Origin: an uncultured Nitrososphaerota archaeon
GTDB lineage: Archaea; Thermoproteota; Nitrososphaeria; Nitrososphaerales; Gagatemarchaeaceae
Assembly (NCBI GenBank): GCA_963838925.1
Contig: CAWISW010000002.1
Location: 32,001-96,000, forward strand
DNA length: 64,000 bases
Reading direction: 5' to 3'
The position numbers were made by a program, and so were the translations under genes. Shown here in pieces: positions 21,989 through 32,294 of this stretch (the stretch's first letter is position 1; every line of letters starts with the position of its first letter). A model generated the notes under the pieces. That model was not told the origin of the DNA. It saw only the letters and a list, made by a program, of their open reading frames with translations, and did no database searches.

Positions 21989-22069
21989 TGTTCCCGCTCC
22001 GCCCATCCGGCATAATAAACCGTTTCCGGCCAGACGGCGCCGTCCCGGATTCGTGTCGCAGTTGTTGAA

Positions 22070-22106
22070 GTGCGGGGGTGCAACATGAACTTTAAGTTCA
22101 AATCCC
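22070..22106 (-). repeat. Degenerate copy of tRNA-Leu 3' end (att-like scar)
   Basis: Minus strand GTTCA-TGTTG-CACCCCCGCAC vs tRNA GTTCA-AATCC-CACCCCCCGCAC, plus an inverted GTTCAAATCCC at 22096-22106. Confidence 0.4.
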
Positions 22107-22140
22107 GAATCATTCATCCTCCTCAGGGCTCCGCGGAAAG

Positions 22141-22260
22141 CCGAAGAAGATAAACTCGGACGAGCTTGCCGATCACCTGCACCTGACGGGCTCCACCGTC
22201 GTCGAGCACCTCAGCAAGGCCGAGCACCGCCTGCTCGTCGGAATCTTCGGCGAAATTTAG
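22141..22260 (+). pseudogene. C-terminal fragment of HTH_10 (Bat-type) regulator
   Basis: Hand translation PKKINSDELADHLHLTGSTVVEHLSKAEHRLLVGIFGEI*; upstream GYY/F and N-terminal domain missing; not in ORF track. Confidence 0.75.
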
Positions 22261-22352
22261 ATAACGCCAAGCGAGACCATGGCGCCTAATGGGAAGGCAG
22301 AGGCGAGTCGAGATAGCGGTAGGTCCATGACAAAGCTCTTCTCTGGATGAGA

Positions 22353-22374
22353 CGATTATCAAAAGTGGAAATCG
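22353..22374 (+). promoter_or_regulatory. TCA-N4-TGR palindrome upstream of CPBP gene
   Basis: CGATTATCA-AAAG-TGGAAATCG. Confidence 0.5.
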
Positions 22375-22420
22375 CAGCTCTCCTTTTGGGCATCTTCGGC
22401 GGCATCGCTGGGTTGCTGCT

Positions 22421-23236
22421 ATGTCACCGCAAAAGGAGAGCGCGTCCCAAAGCGAGGTTCCTGACCATTCTAAGAGAAAAGGCCCTGTAATCGTCTGGCT
22501 GTTCATACTGTCGTATTGGGCCCTAACATCCCTGCTCGTTGGACGAGCAAGTTCGGCTTCGCAAATTCCTTCCGTCGTCACCGCGTCGATGTGGCTCACT
22601 TTCATCTCAGGCCAGCTCCTCGAGTACGCCCCCGTTCTTCTCTTCCTGTTCCTCTTTGTCTGGGTATACGAGAAGAGGGAGAGAGGCGGTGGCATCAGGG
22701 CGCTTTTCTCGAGCGTGGGCTGGAGTAGGACCGGCATCGGGAAGAGCTTGAAATGGGCCCTGGTCTTCCTTCTCATCCTCGCTCCTATTTCGCTCATTCT
22801 TTCTGGCGTGGAATCGGCGGTCGCCGTGGGAACCGGAAGCGCTTCGACGCAATCAGCAACGACTTCGATTCCGCTGGCGTCTCTGATGATCTTAGTAATC
22901 TCCGCCTTCGCTACGGCCGTGACTGAAGAGACGGCAGTCAGGGGCTACATTCTCGACAGGCTGATGCCGGCCCATCCTTCAACTCTGAGACTGTCTCTGA
23001 ACGCCATAATCATAACTTCGGTAATGCAGATGTCTTACCATACTGCGCCGTATTTCAACACCTATGGTTATTCTCTGCCCGTGGCATCTGTAGGTCTCGT
23101 AAGCGTCTTCGTGTACTCCATCTTCCTAAGTTTCGCGTACGTCAGGTCGGGAGCGAGGAACGCATCTGGGCCAATACTGTTCCACTTTCTCCTGGACGCA
23201 GGTTTCTATATAGTGCTGTTCGTCCTTGTTGGATGA
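22421..23236 (+). CDS. CPBP/CAAX (Abi) family intramembrane metalloprotease
   Basis: EETAVRG, MSYH, HFLLD motifs; multiple TM helices; AT-richer codons. Confidence 0.85.
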   Translation: MSPQKESASQSEVPDHSKRKGPVIVWLFILSYWALTSLLVGRASSASQIPSVVTASMWLTFISGQLLEYAPVLLFLFLFVWVYEKRERGGGIRALFSSVGWSRTGIGKSLKWALVFLLILAPISLILSGVESAVAVGTGSASTQSATTSIPLASLMILVISAFATAVTEETAVRGYILDRLMPAHPSTLRLSLNAIIITSVMQMSYHTAPYFNTYGYSLPVASVGLVSVFVYSIFLSFAYVRSGARNASGPILFHFLLDAGFYIVLFVLVG

Positions 23237-23311
23237 TGGAGTTTGGCAATTATTCAAGTCCATAGTTCGGCATGCAAACGGTCGCCATGATGCGCCGCGG
23301 ATGTTTGGTAG

Positions 23312-23430
23312 TGCGGGGGGTGGGATTTGAACCCACGAACCCCAAAGGGATGGGATTTCTTCACCGACGGCTTAAGTCCCACGTCTTCAACACCCTGCAG
23401 GTGTTTTTGACCAGGCTCAACAACCCCCGC
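23312..23430 (-). tRNA. tRNA-Leu(TAA) with two introns (23385-23404 at position 23/24; 23357-23370 at 37/38)
   Basis: Spliced sequence folds: acceptor GCGGGGG/CCCCCGC, D-stem GTT/AAC, anticodon stem TGGGA/TCCCA, long variable arm, T-arm GTGGG-TTCAAAT-CCCAC, discriminator A; no encoded CCA. Confidence 0.93.
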
Positions 23431-23445
23431 AATTTCGCCTTCACG

Positions 23446-24294
23446 TCAACCTGAATAAAGGATTTGCATGGCCAGGAGCTCCTTCCATCGAAGATAACGA
23501 GTAAGATGGGCGTCACAAATTGAGCCCACTTCCCGCATCCAGGCATCGACCGAATCTCTCCTGCCGAGATACGCGACAAAGATTGGCAACTTGTTGTGCC
23601 CGGTCTTCTTGATGTAATTGTAACTCCGAAGTGAATAACCCATCCGGGTCGCGAGTTTTACGAAACCGTCGCGCAACGACTGACTAGAGACCTGTAGCAC
23701 ACACCTTGCGCTTCTCTTGACGTGCGAAAAGCAACCGTCTGCGCTGAAAAGCCCTCGCAGAAATGCAACGATGACTTACGTGCTGTTGCAAGAGAGAACT
23801 TGCTGCGGGACGACCCTCGACCCTGCCTTGGGACCTGGAGCGAAACCAAAATGGAGAAAGAAACGGCGCACTTGAGACTTGCCAGATCTAATCGAGACGG
23901 TTGAGCCCGTTGTAGTCATAGATGGCTCGACGCCTAGGACTCTTTGCGCGAGATTGAAGACAAAGCGAATCATGTTGGTGTCGGTAGAATGCAGCGATAT
24001 TCCCCATCTATCGGAAATCCACCCATCACCAGCATGCAGTCCAAGCAACATGCCAACTTCAGTTGTCAGTTGCGTTCTAGCAGTGCCAAATATTGGATGG
24101 CTACGGCGCATCCGAACGCCATCTTTTCGGAGGACGAGTCTTGCGGATTCATGAGGAATCCCTGTCTTCGCAGCTATCTGGGCTAGTGAGAATCCGGTTA
24201 GGTAGAGCTGCTTAACTAGTTCCGACCGCTTCTCCTTTGGCACGATATTGTGACTGCTGTCTCGGCAATCTCTCGAAACCGCACCGACTACCAT
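23446..24294 (-). pseudogene. HTH + two-motif LAGLIDADG homing endonuclease interrupted by in-frame TAA at 23776-23778
   Basis: LLGLHAGDG in ORF 23776-24294; same frame resumes after stop as VIVAFLRGLFSADG and joins ORF 23446-23700. Confidence 0.85.
23454..23459 (-). promoter_or_regulatory. TATA box of tRNA-Leu, inside last codons of the endonuclease gene
   Basis: TTTATT starting 29 nt upstream of tRNA G1. Confidence 0.55.
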
Positions 24295-24344
24295 CGAATC
24301 AAATGCTATTCGCCGATATAAGCAGCGATACGGCTCTTGCAGGT

Positions 24345-24378
24345 TCCCACGCCGTTAGCCAGGCTTGGCTACCCCCGC
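24345..24378 (-). pseudogene. Orphan tRNA-Leu 5' half (positions 1-31)
   Basis: GCGGGGGTAGCCAAGCCTGGCTAACGGCGTGGGA: acceptor strand, T8, D-stem GCC/GGC with GG, anticodon-stem strand; no adjacent 3' half. Confidence 0.85.
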
Positions 24379-24457
24379 ATTTGTCGGGTTGGAAACAACC
24401 CCCAAAAGCGTTTCCGCCAGCCCGGGATGGCGTCTTCGAGTGCGAGGAGCGATCGAC

Positions 24458-26149
24458 CTAGGAGACGAGCTTGAGAAGGTCTCGTAGCGGCAGCGAGTTC
24501 GCGACGTTCTTCGCCTCTAGCCACGCCCTCCTTGCCACCGCCACCCCGAACTGGACGTTCTCGAGCTCCGTCGGATTGTGGGCGTCCGAGTCCACGACTA
24601 GCTTCACCCCTTGCTGCATCGCCCTCCTCGCCCAGACCTCGTCCAGGTCGAGCCTGTTGGGAGAGCCGTCTATCTCGAGCATCTTGCCGTTGTCCTTCGC
24701 GGTCTTTATCACCTTGGGGAGGTCGACGGGGAACCCCTCTCTCCTGCCGATGATCCTGTTCGTGGGATGGAAGAGGATGTCGACAGAGGGGTGCTCCAGA
24801 GCTTTCACCGCCCTCGCGGTAATCTTCTCCGGCGATTGCTTGTACGACTGATGGATCGAGGCGCCGACGATGTCGAACTGGTCGAAGAAGCTCCGGTCGA
24901 AGTCGAGGCTCCCGTCGGACCTCACCTCGGCCTCGACCGACTTTAGGATCCTGAAGGGCTTGAGCTCCTCGTTGAGCTCGTCTATGGCCTTCCACTGCCT
25001 CCTGAACCGCTCCTCGTCGAGCCCGTTCGCGATGCCCACTGACACCGAGTGGTCCGTCAACGCGATGTATTCGTACCCCCTCTCCATCGCCGCCCTTGCC
25101 ATCTCCTCCAGCTCCGCGCTCCCGTCGCTCCACGTGCTGTGCATCTGGAGGTCGCCCTTGAGCTCCTCGACCTTCACGAGGTCAGGGAGCTTCCCATTCT
25201 GCGCGGCTTCGATCTCGCCCCTTGCCTCCCTAAGCTCCGGGGGGATGAACTCGAGCCCGAGCTTCGCGTAGACGTCCTCCTCGGACTTGCTCGCGATGAC
25301 CTTACCGCTCTTGGCGTCGGCGAGCGCGTACTCGTTCAGCTTCCAGCCCTTATCGATCGCGAGGTTCCTTAGCTCTATGTTGTGCTGCTTCGACCCGGTG
25401 AAGTACAAGAGAGCAGACCCGAGCTCTTCCTGCTTCACTATCCGCACGTCGACCTGTGTCCCGGTCTTCAGGAAGACGCTGACCCGCGTCGGCCCTCGCT
25501 CGATGACTCTGTCCGTCCCCGGGTAGCCCACGAGCGCGTCGCCCGCCTTTGGATCCGTCGCGAGGATGTCGATGTCCCCCACGGTGCTACAGCCCCTCCT
25601 GAGGCTCCCGGCGGGGTGCACATCGATGCCCTTCTCCTCGAAGTAGGCAACCAGCATCGCCGCCAGGTTGTATGCCTCGACGAGGAGCATCCTCGAGCTG
25701 TCCTGCTTCATCTTCTCGACCTCCTCGGCCAGCTTCTTTGCCATCACCTGTCCCACCGCGTCGGTGAGCCTGCCGGAAGCCAGCCCGACACGAAGGTCGT
25801 CGACGCTCTTGACGTGGTAGCTCTTCGAAAGCTTGAAGGCGGTTTTGGGGCCTATCCCTGGTACCCTCATCAGCTCGAGCGCGCCCGTGGGGACCTGCTT
25901 CTCCATCTTCTCGAGCGCCTCGAGCCGCCCAGTCCTCAGATACTCGTCGATCTTCTTCGCGATGGCGCTGCCCACGTACTTGATCTCCTCTAGCTGTCCC
26001 GCCTTCCAGACTTCCTCCACGTCCTTCTCCATGTTGCGGACGCTGGTGGCGGCTCTGTGGTAGGCGATGACCTTGAACCTGTCCTCCCCGGCGGCCTCCG
26101 AGACCTGGGCCATCTTGTCGAGCAGCTCCGCGACGTCGTGGTTCTTCAA
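24458..26149 (-). CDS. polX: DNA polymerase X with PHP domain
   Basis: GSLRR, GDIDI, YFTGSK-HN, PPELRE, DLQMHS-WSDG, TDHS, DSDAH. Confidence 0.95.
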   Translation of the reverse strand: MKNHDVAELLDKMAQVSEAAGEDRFKVIAYHRAATSVRNMEKDVEEVWKAGQLEEIKYVGSAIAKKIDEYLRTGRLEALEKMEKQVPTGALELMRVPGIGPKTAFKLSKSYHVKSVDDLRVGLASGRLTDAVGQVMAKKLAEEVEKMKQDSSRMLLVEAYNLAAMLVAYFEEKGIDVHPAGSLRRGCSTVGDIDILATDPKAGDALVGYPGTDRVIERGPTRVSVFLKTGTQVDVRIVKQEELGSALLYFTGSKQHNIELRNLAIDKGWKLNEYALADAKSGKVIASKSEEDVYAKLGLEFIPPELREARGEIEAAQNGKLPDLVKVEELKGDLQMHSTWSDGSAELEEMARAAMERGYEYIALTDHSVSVGIANGLDEERFRRQWKAIDELNEELKPFRILKSVEAEVRSDGSLDFDRSFFDQFDIVGASIHQSYKQSPEKITARAVKALEHPSVDILFHPTNRIIGRREGFPVDLPKVIKTAKDNGKMLEIDGSPNRLDLDEVWARRAMQQGVKLVVDSDAHNPTELENVQFGVAVARRAWLEAKNVANSLPLRDLLKLVS

Positions 26150-31274: not shown

Positions 31275-32294
31275 ATGGACGCCTACAGGGTCGCCAGCCC
31301 CCTTCTCTTCGCCCTCGACCCTGAGAGGGCGCACAACCTCGGGCTCAGCCTCATGAGGTTCGCGTCCAAGATATCGGTCGACCCGATGCCAGTCAAGACA
31401 GCGCTCGGGGAGCTCTCCAACCCGCTTGGGATGCCCGCTGGCTACGACAAGACAGGGACGCACCTCCACAGCCTCGCCAGGCTCGGCTTCGGTTACATCG
31501 TCGCAGGGACGTTCACCCTCTCGCCTTGGCCCGGAAACCCGAAGCCGAGGGTCGCAAGGAACCGGAACGACAAGACCCTCGTGAACGCCCTCGGGTTCCC
31601 GAACCCTGGAGTGGACTCGTTCGTCCTCAGCCTGAGGTCGAGGAAGCCCCCCGAGGTCCCGCTTGTCGCGAGCATCAGCGGAAAGACCGTCGAGGATGTC
31701 CTCGAGTGCTACAACAAGGTCCAGGAGCACGTCGCAGGGGTCGAGCTCAACCTCAGCTCCCCCAACACCCCGGACCTCAAGGACCTCAGGGCGCCTGAAG
31801 CCTTCGCCGAGCTCGCCCAGGCGATGAGGGACAAGAAGCTCAAGCCGACGTACCTCAAGACGCCTCCCTTCGTAGACGATTCCCAGTACCTCGGGGTCAT
31901 GAAGCTCATCAAGAGCTGGGAGTCGTTGGGCTTCGAGGGAGTGACCGCCTCGAACTCCATCCCAATCGAGGACGCTCGGATGGCCGTCGGCAGGGGCGGC
32001 TGGAGCGGCCCCCCGTTGCTGGCTCACACGAAGGCTGCCGTCGAGAGAATCAGGAGCGTAGCGAGCCCTCTCTTCGAGATCAACGCCTGCGGGGGCATCA
32101 GCAGCGCGGCCGACGCCGCGGCGCTGCTCGAGCTTGGTGCCACCACAGTCCAGGTATTCACAGGGCTCGTCTACCAAGGACCTGCGCTGGTGAAGGGCAT
32201 ACTCACCGACCAAAGGGTCAGGCGGGCTGTCGAGGCGAGGAAGACCGCGATGTGGTCAGGGCCTGCCGCACATCCTCCAAGCGAGAAGAGCTAG
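31275..32294 (+). CDS. pyrD: Dihydroorotate dehydrogenase class 2 (quinone)
   Basis: DPERAH, AGYDK, GNPKPR, NALGFPN, NLSSPNT. Confidence 0.92.
   Translation: MDAYRVASPLLFALDPERAHNLGLSLMRFASKISVDPMPVKTALGELSNPLGMPAGYDKTGTHLHSLARLGFGYIVAGTFTLSPWPGNPKPRVARNRNDKTLVNALGFPNPGVDSFVLSLRSRKPPEVPLVASISGKTVEDVLECYNKVQEHVAGVELNLSSPNTPDLKDLRAPEAFAELAQAMRDKKLKPTYLKTPPFVDDSQYLGVMKLIKSWESLGFEGVTASNSIPIEDARMAVGRGGWSGPPLLAHTKAAVERIRSVASPLFEINACGGISSAADAAALLELGATTVQVFTGLVYQGPALVKGILTDQRVRRAVEARKTAMWSGPAAHPPSEKS

Follow-up and report, generated by a model that had tools for sequence, protein, structure and literature searches.

The polX/tRNA-Leu(UAA) locus

The stretch of DNA considered here is a window of 64,000 nt (positions 32,001 to 96,000 of contig CAWISW010000002.1, assembly GCA_963838925.1, from an uncultured archaeon of the Gagatemarchaeaceae), and its subject is a tRNA-Leu(UAA) locus on the minus strand, at which a gene of the LAGLIDADG homing endonuclease type lies between an orphan 5' fragment of one tRNA gene and a second, complete tRNA gene. 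Coordinates are positions in this window, or on the contigs C1 to C3 of the same genome where one of these is named; related genomes carry G-numbers and single loci L-numbers. The conserved left flank is polX (24458..26149, minus strand, like all features of the locus described in this section), which encodes a family X DNA polymerase with a PHP domain (Pfam DNA_pol_B_thumb, HHH_8 and PHP) and is syntenic in 18 genomes of the genus. Reading on from the end of polX at 24458 into the promoter region of the resident tRNA, the motif is met 66 nt further on. This putative promoter, GAAACGCTTTT (24404..24414, with TTTT at -29 to -26 of the orphan), is kept upstream of the same tRNA in G012, G019, G018, G008, G011 and others, and in the present arrangement it would be directed into the orphan and the endonuclease gene.

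The orphan itself (24345..24378, 34 nt) represents positions 1-31 of the resident intronless tRNA-Leu(UAA): the acceptor strand is followed by a D-arm that has a GCC/GGC stem and no interruption, and the anticodon stem contributes its 5' strand as far as position 31. After it the tRNA homology ends and unrelated sequence follows, in which a TATA-like box, TTATAT (24316..24321), presumably serving the endonuclease gene, lies 22 nt before the ATG; among 9 left ends of cassettes that were aligned, 7 have an element CTTA[AT][AT]T in this position. The endonuclease gene with its N-terminal helix-turn-helix runs from the ATG at 24294 to the TGA at 23446 (23446..24294) and contains one in-frame TAA (23776-23778). 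Its last codons hold another TATA-like sequence, TTTATT (23454..23459), which is at -29 to -24 of the following tRNA gene and would be the promoter of this incoming gene, and a homologous TTTAT is found upstream of the endonuclease-free allele of G009. The complete tRNA-Leu(UAA) gene (23312..23430) belongs to an intron-bearing allele class, with a bulge-helix-bulge intron of 20 nt on the 3' side of the D-arm (23385..23404, boundaries sliding by 2 nt) and an insert of about 14 nt at canonical position 37/38 (23357..23370), as judged by comparison with the mature tRNA-Leu pattern.

A strict motif for the Leu 5' half occurs at five places on the two strands of the 1.84-Mb genome, of which three are real, two of them at this locus, and two are chance matches; as only two chance places are found in 3.7 Mb of strand, chance is excluded as explanation for the duplicated 5' halves. 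The anatomy had been described in an earlier sequence-only reading of the window, and every feature was found at its place on the minus strand, the description being correct throughout. That reading had also pointed to the contrast between the two D-arms, GCC/GGC without intron and GTT/AAC with a bulge-helix-bulge intron, both of which are seen, and to the normal tRNA gene that results when 23377-24344 is excised, which is exactly the form present in the related genome G012.

Alleles of the locus in the genus

Forty relatives were searched, and the spacer between polX and the tRNA gene was extracted from the 18 genomes of the genus with both on one contig; left out of the count were G017 and G020, in which the contig ends, and G021 and G022, in which there is no polX-linked match. 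The spacer measures 141-214 nt in 13 genomes, 369 nt in one and 1087-1146 nt in four. Nine of the 18 genomes have an intronless gene, six have a gene with the D-arm intron without an endonuclease gene, and three, namely the genome of the window, G001 and G003, possess the complete succession of orphan, LAGLIDADG gene, promoter and intron-bearing tRNA gene. There is thus a presence/absence polymorphism at one defined site among close relatives.

The empty allele that had been predicted for this locus is present in G012, the closest relative by polX (92% identity across the final 120 residues). The promoter motif is shared, and the 5' half of the G012 gene is identical to the orphan in 34 of 34 positions and is joined directly to the 3' half. 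Further empty alleles are found in G018 and G014 and, by alignment, in G006. In G001 and G003 the endonuclease frames are uninterrupted, with 284 and 269 codons from stop to stop, and orphans that have visibly decayed occur in other lineages (G003 and the metagenome loci L094 and L096). The successive stages of what appears to be a homing cycle are thereby represented in one genus: an empty site, an occupied site with open frame, an occupied site with broken frame as in the window, and, in G009, an intron allele with the cassette-type promoter and without the enzyme. The sequence-only reading had further supposed that the 5' half was recoded by the cassette, and this part has to be given up, as the combination of GTT/AAC stem and intron is a natural allele class that is endonuclease-free in 6 of the 18 genomes and in two other families.

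In G015 a different, frame-shifted helix-turn-helix LAGLIDADG gene stands on the opposite strand before an intronless tRNA-Leu(UAA) gene (locus L018). The promoter of this tRNA gene is of another type, AATTCTTAATTAAACGCC, which G004, G016 and G013 have immediately after polX and G005 has beyond its 369-nt spacer. The polX/tRNA-Leu locus may also have been acted on by a second lineage of enzymes.

The intron-bearing tRNA-Leu(UAA) gene

The tRNA gene at 23430-23312 is recognized by the Rfam model with 38.1 bits at a gathering score of 29, and it is the only Leu gene with a UAA anticodon that was found in the assembly, the other Leu anticodons being TAG, GAG and CAG. ARAGORN missed it in its default run and mis-called it as tRNA-Asp when introns were allowed. 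In the whole window this program reports one tRNA, with intron-bearing genes mis-assigned, and Rfam with default filters finds only 4 tRNAs across 20 related genome loci and misses most intron-bearing tRNA-Leu genes.

The D-arm insert consists of a 4-bp central helix (TCAA/TTGA), two 3-nt bulges and an inner helix of 4-5 bp. Its structure was examined in an alignment of 21 alleles, drawn from the genus, other Nitrososphaerales and two further families of the order, and the scored model comprised the 4-bp central helix, the two 3-nt bulges and a 4-bp inner helix, amounting to 167 cells. An unconstrained motif finder gave many spurious solutions, and the alignment-based count was used in its place. 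Pairing is found in 92.2% of the cells versus 25.7-54.5% in slid controls, with 90.5% for the central and 94.0% for the inner helix; compensatory changes are seen in 4 of 8 pairs (23 cells), and none of 500 shuffles reaches the observed covariation score. The D-arm insert is a real and conserved intron structure. The outer helix has only 1 bp and one central pair is A/G in 7 of the 21 alleles, which makes this a relaxed bulge-helix-bulge motif. After removal of the intron, the GTT of the D-stem pairs with AAC and the remainder corresponds to the intronless pattern of the relatives. For the insert at 37/38, the bulge-helix-bulge motif is weak by eye, and a variable insert is present at this position in all alleles of the genus. 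From tRNA position 26 on, the orphan-type and the linked allele are identical here. The genome encodes two EndA proteins (PF01974; 95.9 and 78.5 bits), which would fit the heteromeric type of splicing endonuclease that handles relaxed bulge-helix-bulge motifs. Among sequencing runs, no RNA run was listed as containing the locus.

The endonuclease gene

The product of the window gene has two LAGLIDADG-type domains in one polypeptide. In the first half, residues 79-147 match Pfam LAGLIDADG_3 with 21.0 bits, just below the cut-off of 22.5, and the part behind the stop reaches 31.2 bits with the same family. The motifs with the acidic residues read LLGLHAGDG and FLRGLFSADG, and the residues G65, D66 and G67 as well as D163 and G164 are invariant in 13 relatives. 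The intact relative in G001 matches LAGLIDADG_3 in two stretches with 49.3 bits. Matches among structures in the PDB include the V-ATPase intein 7qsu (E 2.7e-10), PI-SceI (1e-4) and the "putative homing endonuclease" 2dch (E 0.002), and the N-terminal helix-turn-helix has a weak match to that of Sleeping Beauty. The in-frame TAA at 23776-23778 breaks the frame, and the copy in the window is a pseudogene; a search of the own genome likewise reports one TAA inside the match. Two further weak tblastn matches of the enzyme in this genome turned out to be inteins.

Probable foreign origin of the block

Composition and allele likeness at the locus are at odds with the host. Between about 22100 and 24350 the G+C content falls to 0.51-0.56, compared with 0.59-0.64 to either side, and the cassette has 0.51 versus 0.61 for the window. 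By identity counts (not by a tree), the present tRNA gene goes with G019, G008 and G009 and the orphan with G012: the gene is identical to the endonuclease-free G009 allele in 110 of 119 positions, and its last 45 nt agree in 45 of 45 positions with the intron-type alleles of G019 and G008 and in 42 of 45 with G012. G012 lacks not only the 968 nt upstream but also a segment of 1.28 kb downstream of the tRNA (22034..23310, by BLAST against the G012 locus), and homology resumes at 22033. This downstream segment is unique in the genome and contains an open reading frame (ORF) for a CPBP/Rce1-like membrane protease (22421-23236, plus strand, Pfam Rce1-like), overlapped on the other strand by an ORF of 224 codons without family. 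A regular cargo function of the CPBP-like gene was considered and rejected, as it was sought at the other cassette loci and none of them has it.

The low-G+C block of 2.2 kb (22100-24350), including the 1.28 kb downstream of the tRNA, looks co-acquired. Together with the donor-type last 45 nt of the gene, this block suggests that most likely the whole tRNA gene was imported, as in the cassettes of Bathyarchaeia described below, perhaps with further DNA, and that the 3' half in use is that of the donor. The sequence-only reading had taken the single 3' half for the resident one, which on these identity counts it probably is not. A decayed resident 3' remnant at about 22070-22112 had looked suggestive in a global alignment alone and was rejected: its local score of 8 compares with a mean of 8.5 for 4000 random windows, of which 64% score at least equally, and a fuzzy search did not return it either.

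The enzyme family in Nitrososphaerales and Bathyarchaeia

A search with the intact G001 protein returned 100 relatives, which, where named, are Thaumarchaeota or Nitrososphaerales LAGLIDADG proteins, and some of their gene calls continue through the promoter into the tRNA 5' half. An alignment of 13 proteins served to collect 44 genome loci, of which the 20 close ones were used, and 80 metagenome loci, giving 101 loci together with the window. Their hosts are Candidatus Gagatemarchaeum (one locus), other Nitrososphaerales and Bathyarchaeia. The loci were annotated with our own motifs for Leu-type 5' halves, for T-arm/acceptor parts and for complete genes, because Rfam found 4 tRNAs in the 20 genome loci and none at the tRNA-Pro locus treated below.

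The enzyme is linked to intron-bearing tRNA-Leu genes throughout this collection: a complete tRNA-Leu gene follows within 150 nt downstream on the same strand in 59 of the 101 loci, and all 59 linked genes have 13-28 extra nt between the D-loop and the anticodon loop. The anticodon loops read CTCAAG in 39 and CTTAAG in 20 of them. An upstream Leu 5' fragment, for which the sequence-only reading had suggested a search beside LAGLIDADG frames, is kept in 32 of the 59 loci, with an uninterrupted D-stem in 22 of the 32, and the orphan end always adjoins the enzyme gene. The arrangement of G001 and G003, with an uninterrupted LAGLIDADG frame, recurs in the metagenome loci L085/86, L094/96, L095 and L127.

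Seven loci from Bathyarchaeia are particularly clear, since they have both a 5' and a 3' flanking fragment, the acceptor strands of which pair with each other and not with the cassette tRNA. The fragments break at about tRNA position 30-32, and the orphan in the window ends at 31. Judging from these fragments, a resident gene is cut in two in each case by a cassette that carries its own gene. The comparison of alleles and fragments shows that the cassettes are inserted into tRNA genes and replace them, with breakpoints in the anticodon arm.

A mirrored arrangement is found in 29 of the 101 loci, 22 of them with both of its features, in that the enzyme gene lies antisense between an intron-type 5' fragment and a complete gene, and the complete gene is intronless in 17 of the 25 that were scored. 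This type, in L129-L159, L051, L052 and L054 from genome and metagenome contigs of Bathyarchaeia, belongs to a more distant LAGLIDADG lineage with 36-41% identity; the 5' fragment comes from an intron-bearing tRNA-Leu(CAA), and the complete tRNA-Leu(CAA) gene is of another, mostly intronless type. In L136 the resident 3' fragment begins only 2 nt after the cassette tRNA. Taken together, the mirrored and the same-strand class suggest two enzyme lineages that replace each other's alleles. In Bathyarchaeia each of these lineages seems to go with its own one of two tRNA-Leu(CAA) alleles and to be inserted in the other allele, in both cases at the same place of the anticodon arm, which would amount to a reciprocal replacement contest.

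Some loci in Nitrososphaerales differ in detail. In L039, L094 and L096 the linked gene is a tRNA-Leu(CAA) with an insert at about 31/32 and not in the D-arm. In L039 an orphan 3' part lies 66 nt downstream of the cassette tRNA, and the upstream orphan of L094/L096 has CTTAAAT, either a remnant of a UAA anticodon loop or the TATA box of the enzyme gene.

A second cassette at tRNA-Pro(UGG)

The genome of the window contains a second cassette at C3:415542-416485 (locus L180, minus strand 1286-343), which ARAGORN reports as a tRNA-Pro with an intron of 865 nt. Of six such large "introns" inspected in other tRNAs, five were spurious, and this one is real as a second cassette. It begins with the 5' part of an intronless tRNA-Pro(UGG) with a decayed anticodon loop, followed by a TATA-like box and an ORF of 255 codons with LAGLIDADG-like motifs, which reaches only 15.4 bits with Pfam (E 0.023). 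The end of the ORF overlaps a TATAATAT box and the start of a complete tRNA-Pro gene, in which both the D-loop and the anticodon stem hold an insert. In G006 the upstream flank is the same, and an empty, intronless gene of 76 nt follows it. The intron-bearing gene without ORF is found in G020, G008 and G022, a homologue of the ORF in G002, and an orphan of 15 nt in G018.

In total, the genome has 23 LAGLIDADG_3 matches, and 7 of the 10 free-standing LAGLIDADG frames below 450 codons abut a tRNA gene (the one at tRNA-Pro counted). Frames adjoining tRNAs are found at C2:217389-218450 (tRNA-Gln), C3:389417-390109 (tRNA-Pro) and C1:284720-285169 (tRNA-Cys), and two frames, C3:44938-45588 (plus strand) and C3:45732-46727 (minus strand), flank a tRNA at C3:45632-45726, where no orphan was seen.

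A homing cassette as the probable origin of the locus

We think that the locus is quite probably the footprint left when a free-standing LAGLIDADG homing cassette entered the tRNA-Leu(UAA) gene, present in single copy downstream of polX, and replaced its target with an intron-bearing, presumably immune allele. In substance this is the interpretation offered by the sequence-only reading, of which the homing element stands with the empty allele, the recurrence of the arrangement and the linkage in 59 of 101 loci, whereas the recoding of the 5' half does not, nor probably the retention of the resident 3' half. The cassette would carry the endonuclease gene with its own TATA box, followed by the promoter and the tRNA-Leu(UAA) gene with its D-arm intron. 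LAGLIDADG enzymes have targets of about 20 bp around the cut, and repair of the break uses the copy that bears the element. On this basis, the enzyme would recognize the uninterrupted DNA of D-arm and anticodon arm of an intronless tRNA-Leu gene and cut near positions 26-33, and the break would be repaired from the cassette-bearing chromosome, a repair that would copy in the endonuclease gene, the promoter and the intron allele. What would stay upstream as the orphan is the resident 5' part (positions 1-31) with its promoter. Protection of the linked allele would come from its intron and its different D-arm, which change the left half of the target site, and the host would keep a working tRNA because the splicing endonuclease, for which the two EndA genes are candidates, removes the intron. 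The stop codon in the enzyme gene would then mark the decay stage of the homing cycle, the invasion being old enough for it.

Several observations weigh against this reading or limit it. With its broken enzyme gene, nothing can be active at the locus now, and the start codons of the endonuclease genes in G001 and G003 are ambiguous. The right-hand border of the insertion is not defined in the window, where no significant remnant of a resident 3' half was found. Intron alleles without endonuclease are frequent, being present in 6 of the 18 genomes of the genus, and two other families of the order share the intron, from which it follows that it predates the invasion and does not need the enzyme to persist or move. 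Moreover, G002, G007 and G010 combine an orphan-like D-arm with the intron in the absence of the enzyme, so that D-arm type and intron are not strictly coupled. Homologous repair alone would leave no orphan, and therefore the first duplication is not accounted for by it; the orphan ends, which differ by lineage (positions 25, 26 and 31), suggest end-joining or microhomology, by which the first entry into a lineage may have occurred, with faithful homing afterwards. As to the counts, 13 of the 101 loci were missed or only partly resolved by the motif annotation, and many of the 101 come from related or identical organisms, so that the numbers overstate independent events. Among 401 sampled genomes of the class, the enzyme family (as opposed to intein domains) was found only in the window's own genome, and within the class it looks patchy. 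In these searches the Pfam-based approach gave matches in 115 genomes and the alignment-based one in 19; of the 19 matches listed outside the own genome, 18 lie in frames of at least 650 amino acids, which are intein-like by length, and that of G334 in a frame of 204 amino acids.

Integration by an integrase classically leaves direct repeats of part of a tRNA gene, and the two 5' halves could accordingly be copies of the attachment site of a larger integrative element, a virus or plasmid with a tyrosine or pNOB8-type integrase, that has shrunk to about 1-2 kb and in which the LAGLIDADG gene is a passenger. The low-G+C block indeed exceeds the endonuclease cassette and holds the unrelated CPBP-like gene, and the sole published archaeal case with the same anatomy was read in this way, according to the available text of PMC3293823. 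However, the integrases treated there use tRNA termini (PMC3293823, as far as its accessible parts go), whereas here the break is in the anticodon arm and it is the 5' part that is duplicated. No integrase is among the ORFs of 22100-24344, which encode the LAGLIDADG protein, the CPBP/Rce1-like protein and one protein without Pfam family. The only constant partner of the split tRNA genes in the 101 loci is the present endonuclease family, compact cassettes such as L136 have nothing but enzyme and tRNA between the fragments, and the CPBP gene accompanies none of the other cassettes, for which reasons we regard an integrase origin as unlikely. The alternative that the endonuclease gene merely settled in the spacer of an old tandem duplication of tRNA-Leu(UAA), or of a product of ectopic recombination between Leu genes, with later decay of the upstream copy, could draw on the free-standing LAGLIDADG genes that stand beside tRNAs without obvious orphans (C3:44938-45588 and C2:217389-218450) and on L038, L040 and L050, where the enzyme gene lies between polX and the tRNA without an orphan. 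Two complete tandem tRNA-Leu genes in relatives, which the sequence-only reading had named as the sign of such simple decay, are however seen at none of the 18 loci, and the two 5' halves are not diverged copies but different allele classes of different species (34 of 34 with G012 versus the class of G019 and G009). As the orphan always ends beside the enzyme gene, at position 25-31, and the same picture is found for tRNA-Pro with another enzyme, we give this explanation little credit.

That the orphan is still used, with the 968 nt as a giant intron, by trans-splicing, or as an alternative 5' exon for a second tRNA-Leu species, might be suspected from its intact promoter, from its perfect sequence up to position 31, and from the heptamer ACCTGCA, which stands behind the orphan and also behind the D-stem of the second copy. 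Split and tri-split tRNAs are also described for other archaea in the part of PMC10714607 that was available. Yet the registers checked by eye gave no 4-bp central helix with two 3-nt bulges across the junctions, use of the 3' site of the mini-intron would leave a mispaired D-stem, and the orphans in G003, L094 and L096 have decayed. A 3' half with a leader complementary to the orphan, by which a trans-spliced tRNA would betray itself, was not found in the genome, where only scattered, isolated 11-mers match and the remaining 3'-half matches are all in complete genes, so that continued use of the orphan seems very improbable to us. Finally, the assembly is of the metagenome type and 87% complete, tRNA repeats often break or chimerize assemblies, and many related contigs stop at the tRNA, from which one could suppose that the contig combines two strains that differ in their tRNA-Leu alleles. 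Against such a chimera, the locus lies within a contig of 614 kb, and the same architecture is present in independent assemblies (G001, G003 and several metagenome contigs). Contigs from four sequencing runs were compared with the locus, all of them of low depth and none spanning the whole stretch. From run X1, a contig of 561 nt agrees with 23628-24188, the TAA among them, at every position, and the junction of cassette and orphan is crossed by contigs of X1 (24200-24368) and X2 (23967-24360), which match the endonuclease region without differences and reach only 24 nt (X1) and 16 nt (X2) into the orphan; this read support is weak, as X1 is possibly the source sample itself. In X4, one contig has 23376 joined to 24345, which is the empty form, at 90% likeness and so comes from a relative, not necessarily from this population. 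In view of the independent assemblies, we consider an artefact the least credible explanation of all and hardly worth entertaining.

The homing cassette leads to a bolder proposal, which we put forward only tentatively and would not yet bet on: non-canonical bulge-helix-bulge tRNA introns could owe their spread, at least partly, to free-standing LAGLIDADG endonucleases, which they would accompany as tags of immunity. Each enzyme would be linked to an allele it cannot cut, destroy the rival allele and put its own in the place, so that a natural "home-and-rescue" drive would act on an essential RNA gene. By the same logic, and with the same reserve, the tRNA-Pro(UGG) gene of this genome could be the object of such a drive.

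Comparison with known systems and significance

A parallel in kind is collaborative homing at psbA of cyanophages, for which Zeng, Bonocora and Shub are said to have shown in 2009 that a free-standing endonuclease encoded beside an intron-containing gene cuts the insertion site of intronless alleles. As in the window, the endonuclease gene lies outside the intron and beside the gene, the intron is thought to be protective, and both travel together. The psbA intron, however, is of group I and interrupts a phage protein gene, whereas the intron of the present locus has the bulge-helix-bulge form and belongs to a cellular tRNA gene of an archaeon; unlike at psbA, the cassette here also takes a promoter and a copy of the gene with it and leaves a piece of its target in place. 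Synthetic "cleave-and-rescue" or "home-and-rescue" drives also couple a nuclease that destroys an essential gene to a recoded copy that cannot be cut. These drives are engineered, use Cas9 and work in insects, and the present system would be a natural, protein-only counterpart in archaea, provided that the linked copy is immune as we suppose. The LAGLIDADG enzymes of archaeal rRNA introns and inteins belong to the same fold family, likewise have two motifs per chain and show presence or absence at a fixed site of a conserved gene; in contrast to these, the gene here is outside an intron or intein, its product has an N-terminal helix-turn-helix, and the target is a tRNA gene.

A comparable case from fungal mitochondria is reportedly atp6 of Allomyces. 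In mitochondria of Endoconidiophora, free-standing homing endonuclease genes lie between cob or atp6 and a duplicated gene end, so that, as here, the endonuclease gene brings a replacement part and the displaced part becomes a pseudogene fragment (PMC6279837, in the portion available). The fungal cases described there concern a protein gene in an organelle with a duplicated 3' end, whereas here an RNA gene of an archaeal chromosome is concerned, of which the 5' part with promoter or the whole gene is supplied, and an intron is involved (PMC6279837, same portion). SegB, encoded in the tRNA gene region of phage T4, is another free-standing homing endonuclease tied to tRNA genes (PMC13096335), but it is a phage enzyme of the GIY-YIG type, and neither a split or rebuilt tRNA gene nor an intron is known to be involved.

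The nearest published case in archaea is the disrupted tRNA-Thr(GGU) gene of Caldiarchaeum subterraneum (Sugahara et al. 2012, PMC3293823), of which the following holds for the parts of the paper that were accessible. As in the window, a 5' fragment (positions 1-27) lies upstream of a complete copy with an extra intron, at 24/25, and the insert of 1.9 kb between the two contains an ORF of 813 bp that immediately precedes the tRNA in the same orientation. There is an uninterrupted allele as well, in that case in the same population, and the authors proposed the event as a route of intron gain. They classified the ORF with a machine-learning classifier as a putative DNA recombinase and assumed an integration of the pNOB8 type, whereas the gene here is a LAGLIDADG gene and its association with tRNA genes is family-wide; the word "homing" does not occur in the accessible text. 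The Caldiarchaeum case may be another instance of a homing cassette that was misread as an integration. The words "homing" and "LAGLIDADG" are also absent from the available parts of two reviews (PMC4033280, PMC4390854) and of a preprint on Asgard tRNA introns (10.64898/2026.10.13.758758). A literature search, outside of which subscription papers lay, found no paper in which archaeal tRNA genes that are split or gain introns are connected with LAGLIDADG or homing endonucleases.

The origin of the odd-position tRNA introns and split tRNA genes of archaea is a long-open question. The published ideas on the introns are a "transposition" by an unknown mechanism and a protection against integrating elements, and the present locus together with its relatives offers a concrete and testable agent. 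In practical terms, intron-bearing tRNA genes of this kind are missed or mis-called in annotation, as the tRNA-Asp call by ARAGORN illustrates here, and, if the proposal is true, the cassettes would be a source of new LAGLIDADG enzymes with defined targets of 20-odd bp in tRNA genes. For the archaea themselves it would mean that a natural counterpart of the engineered rescue-type gene drives acts on their tRNA genes, and it would explain why introns cluster around one stretch of the tRNA, why tRNA fragments are scattered in these genomes, and why close species differ in their intron content.

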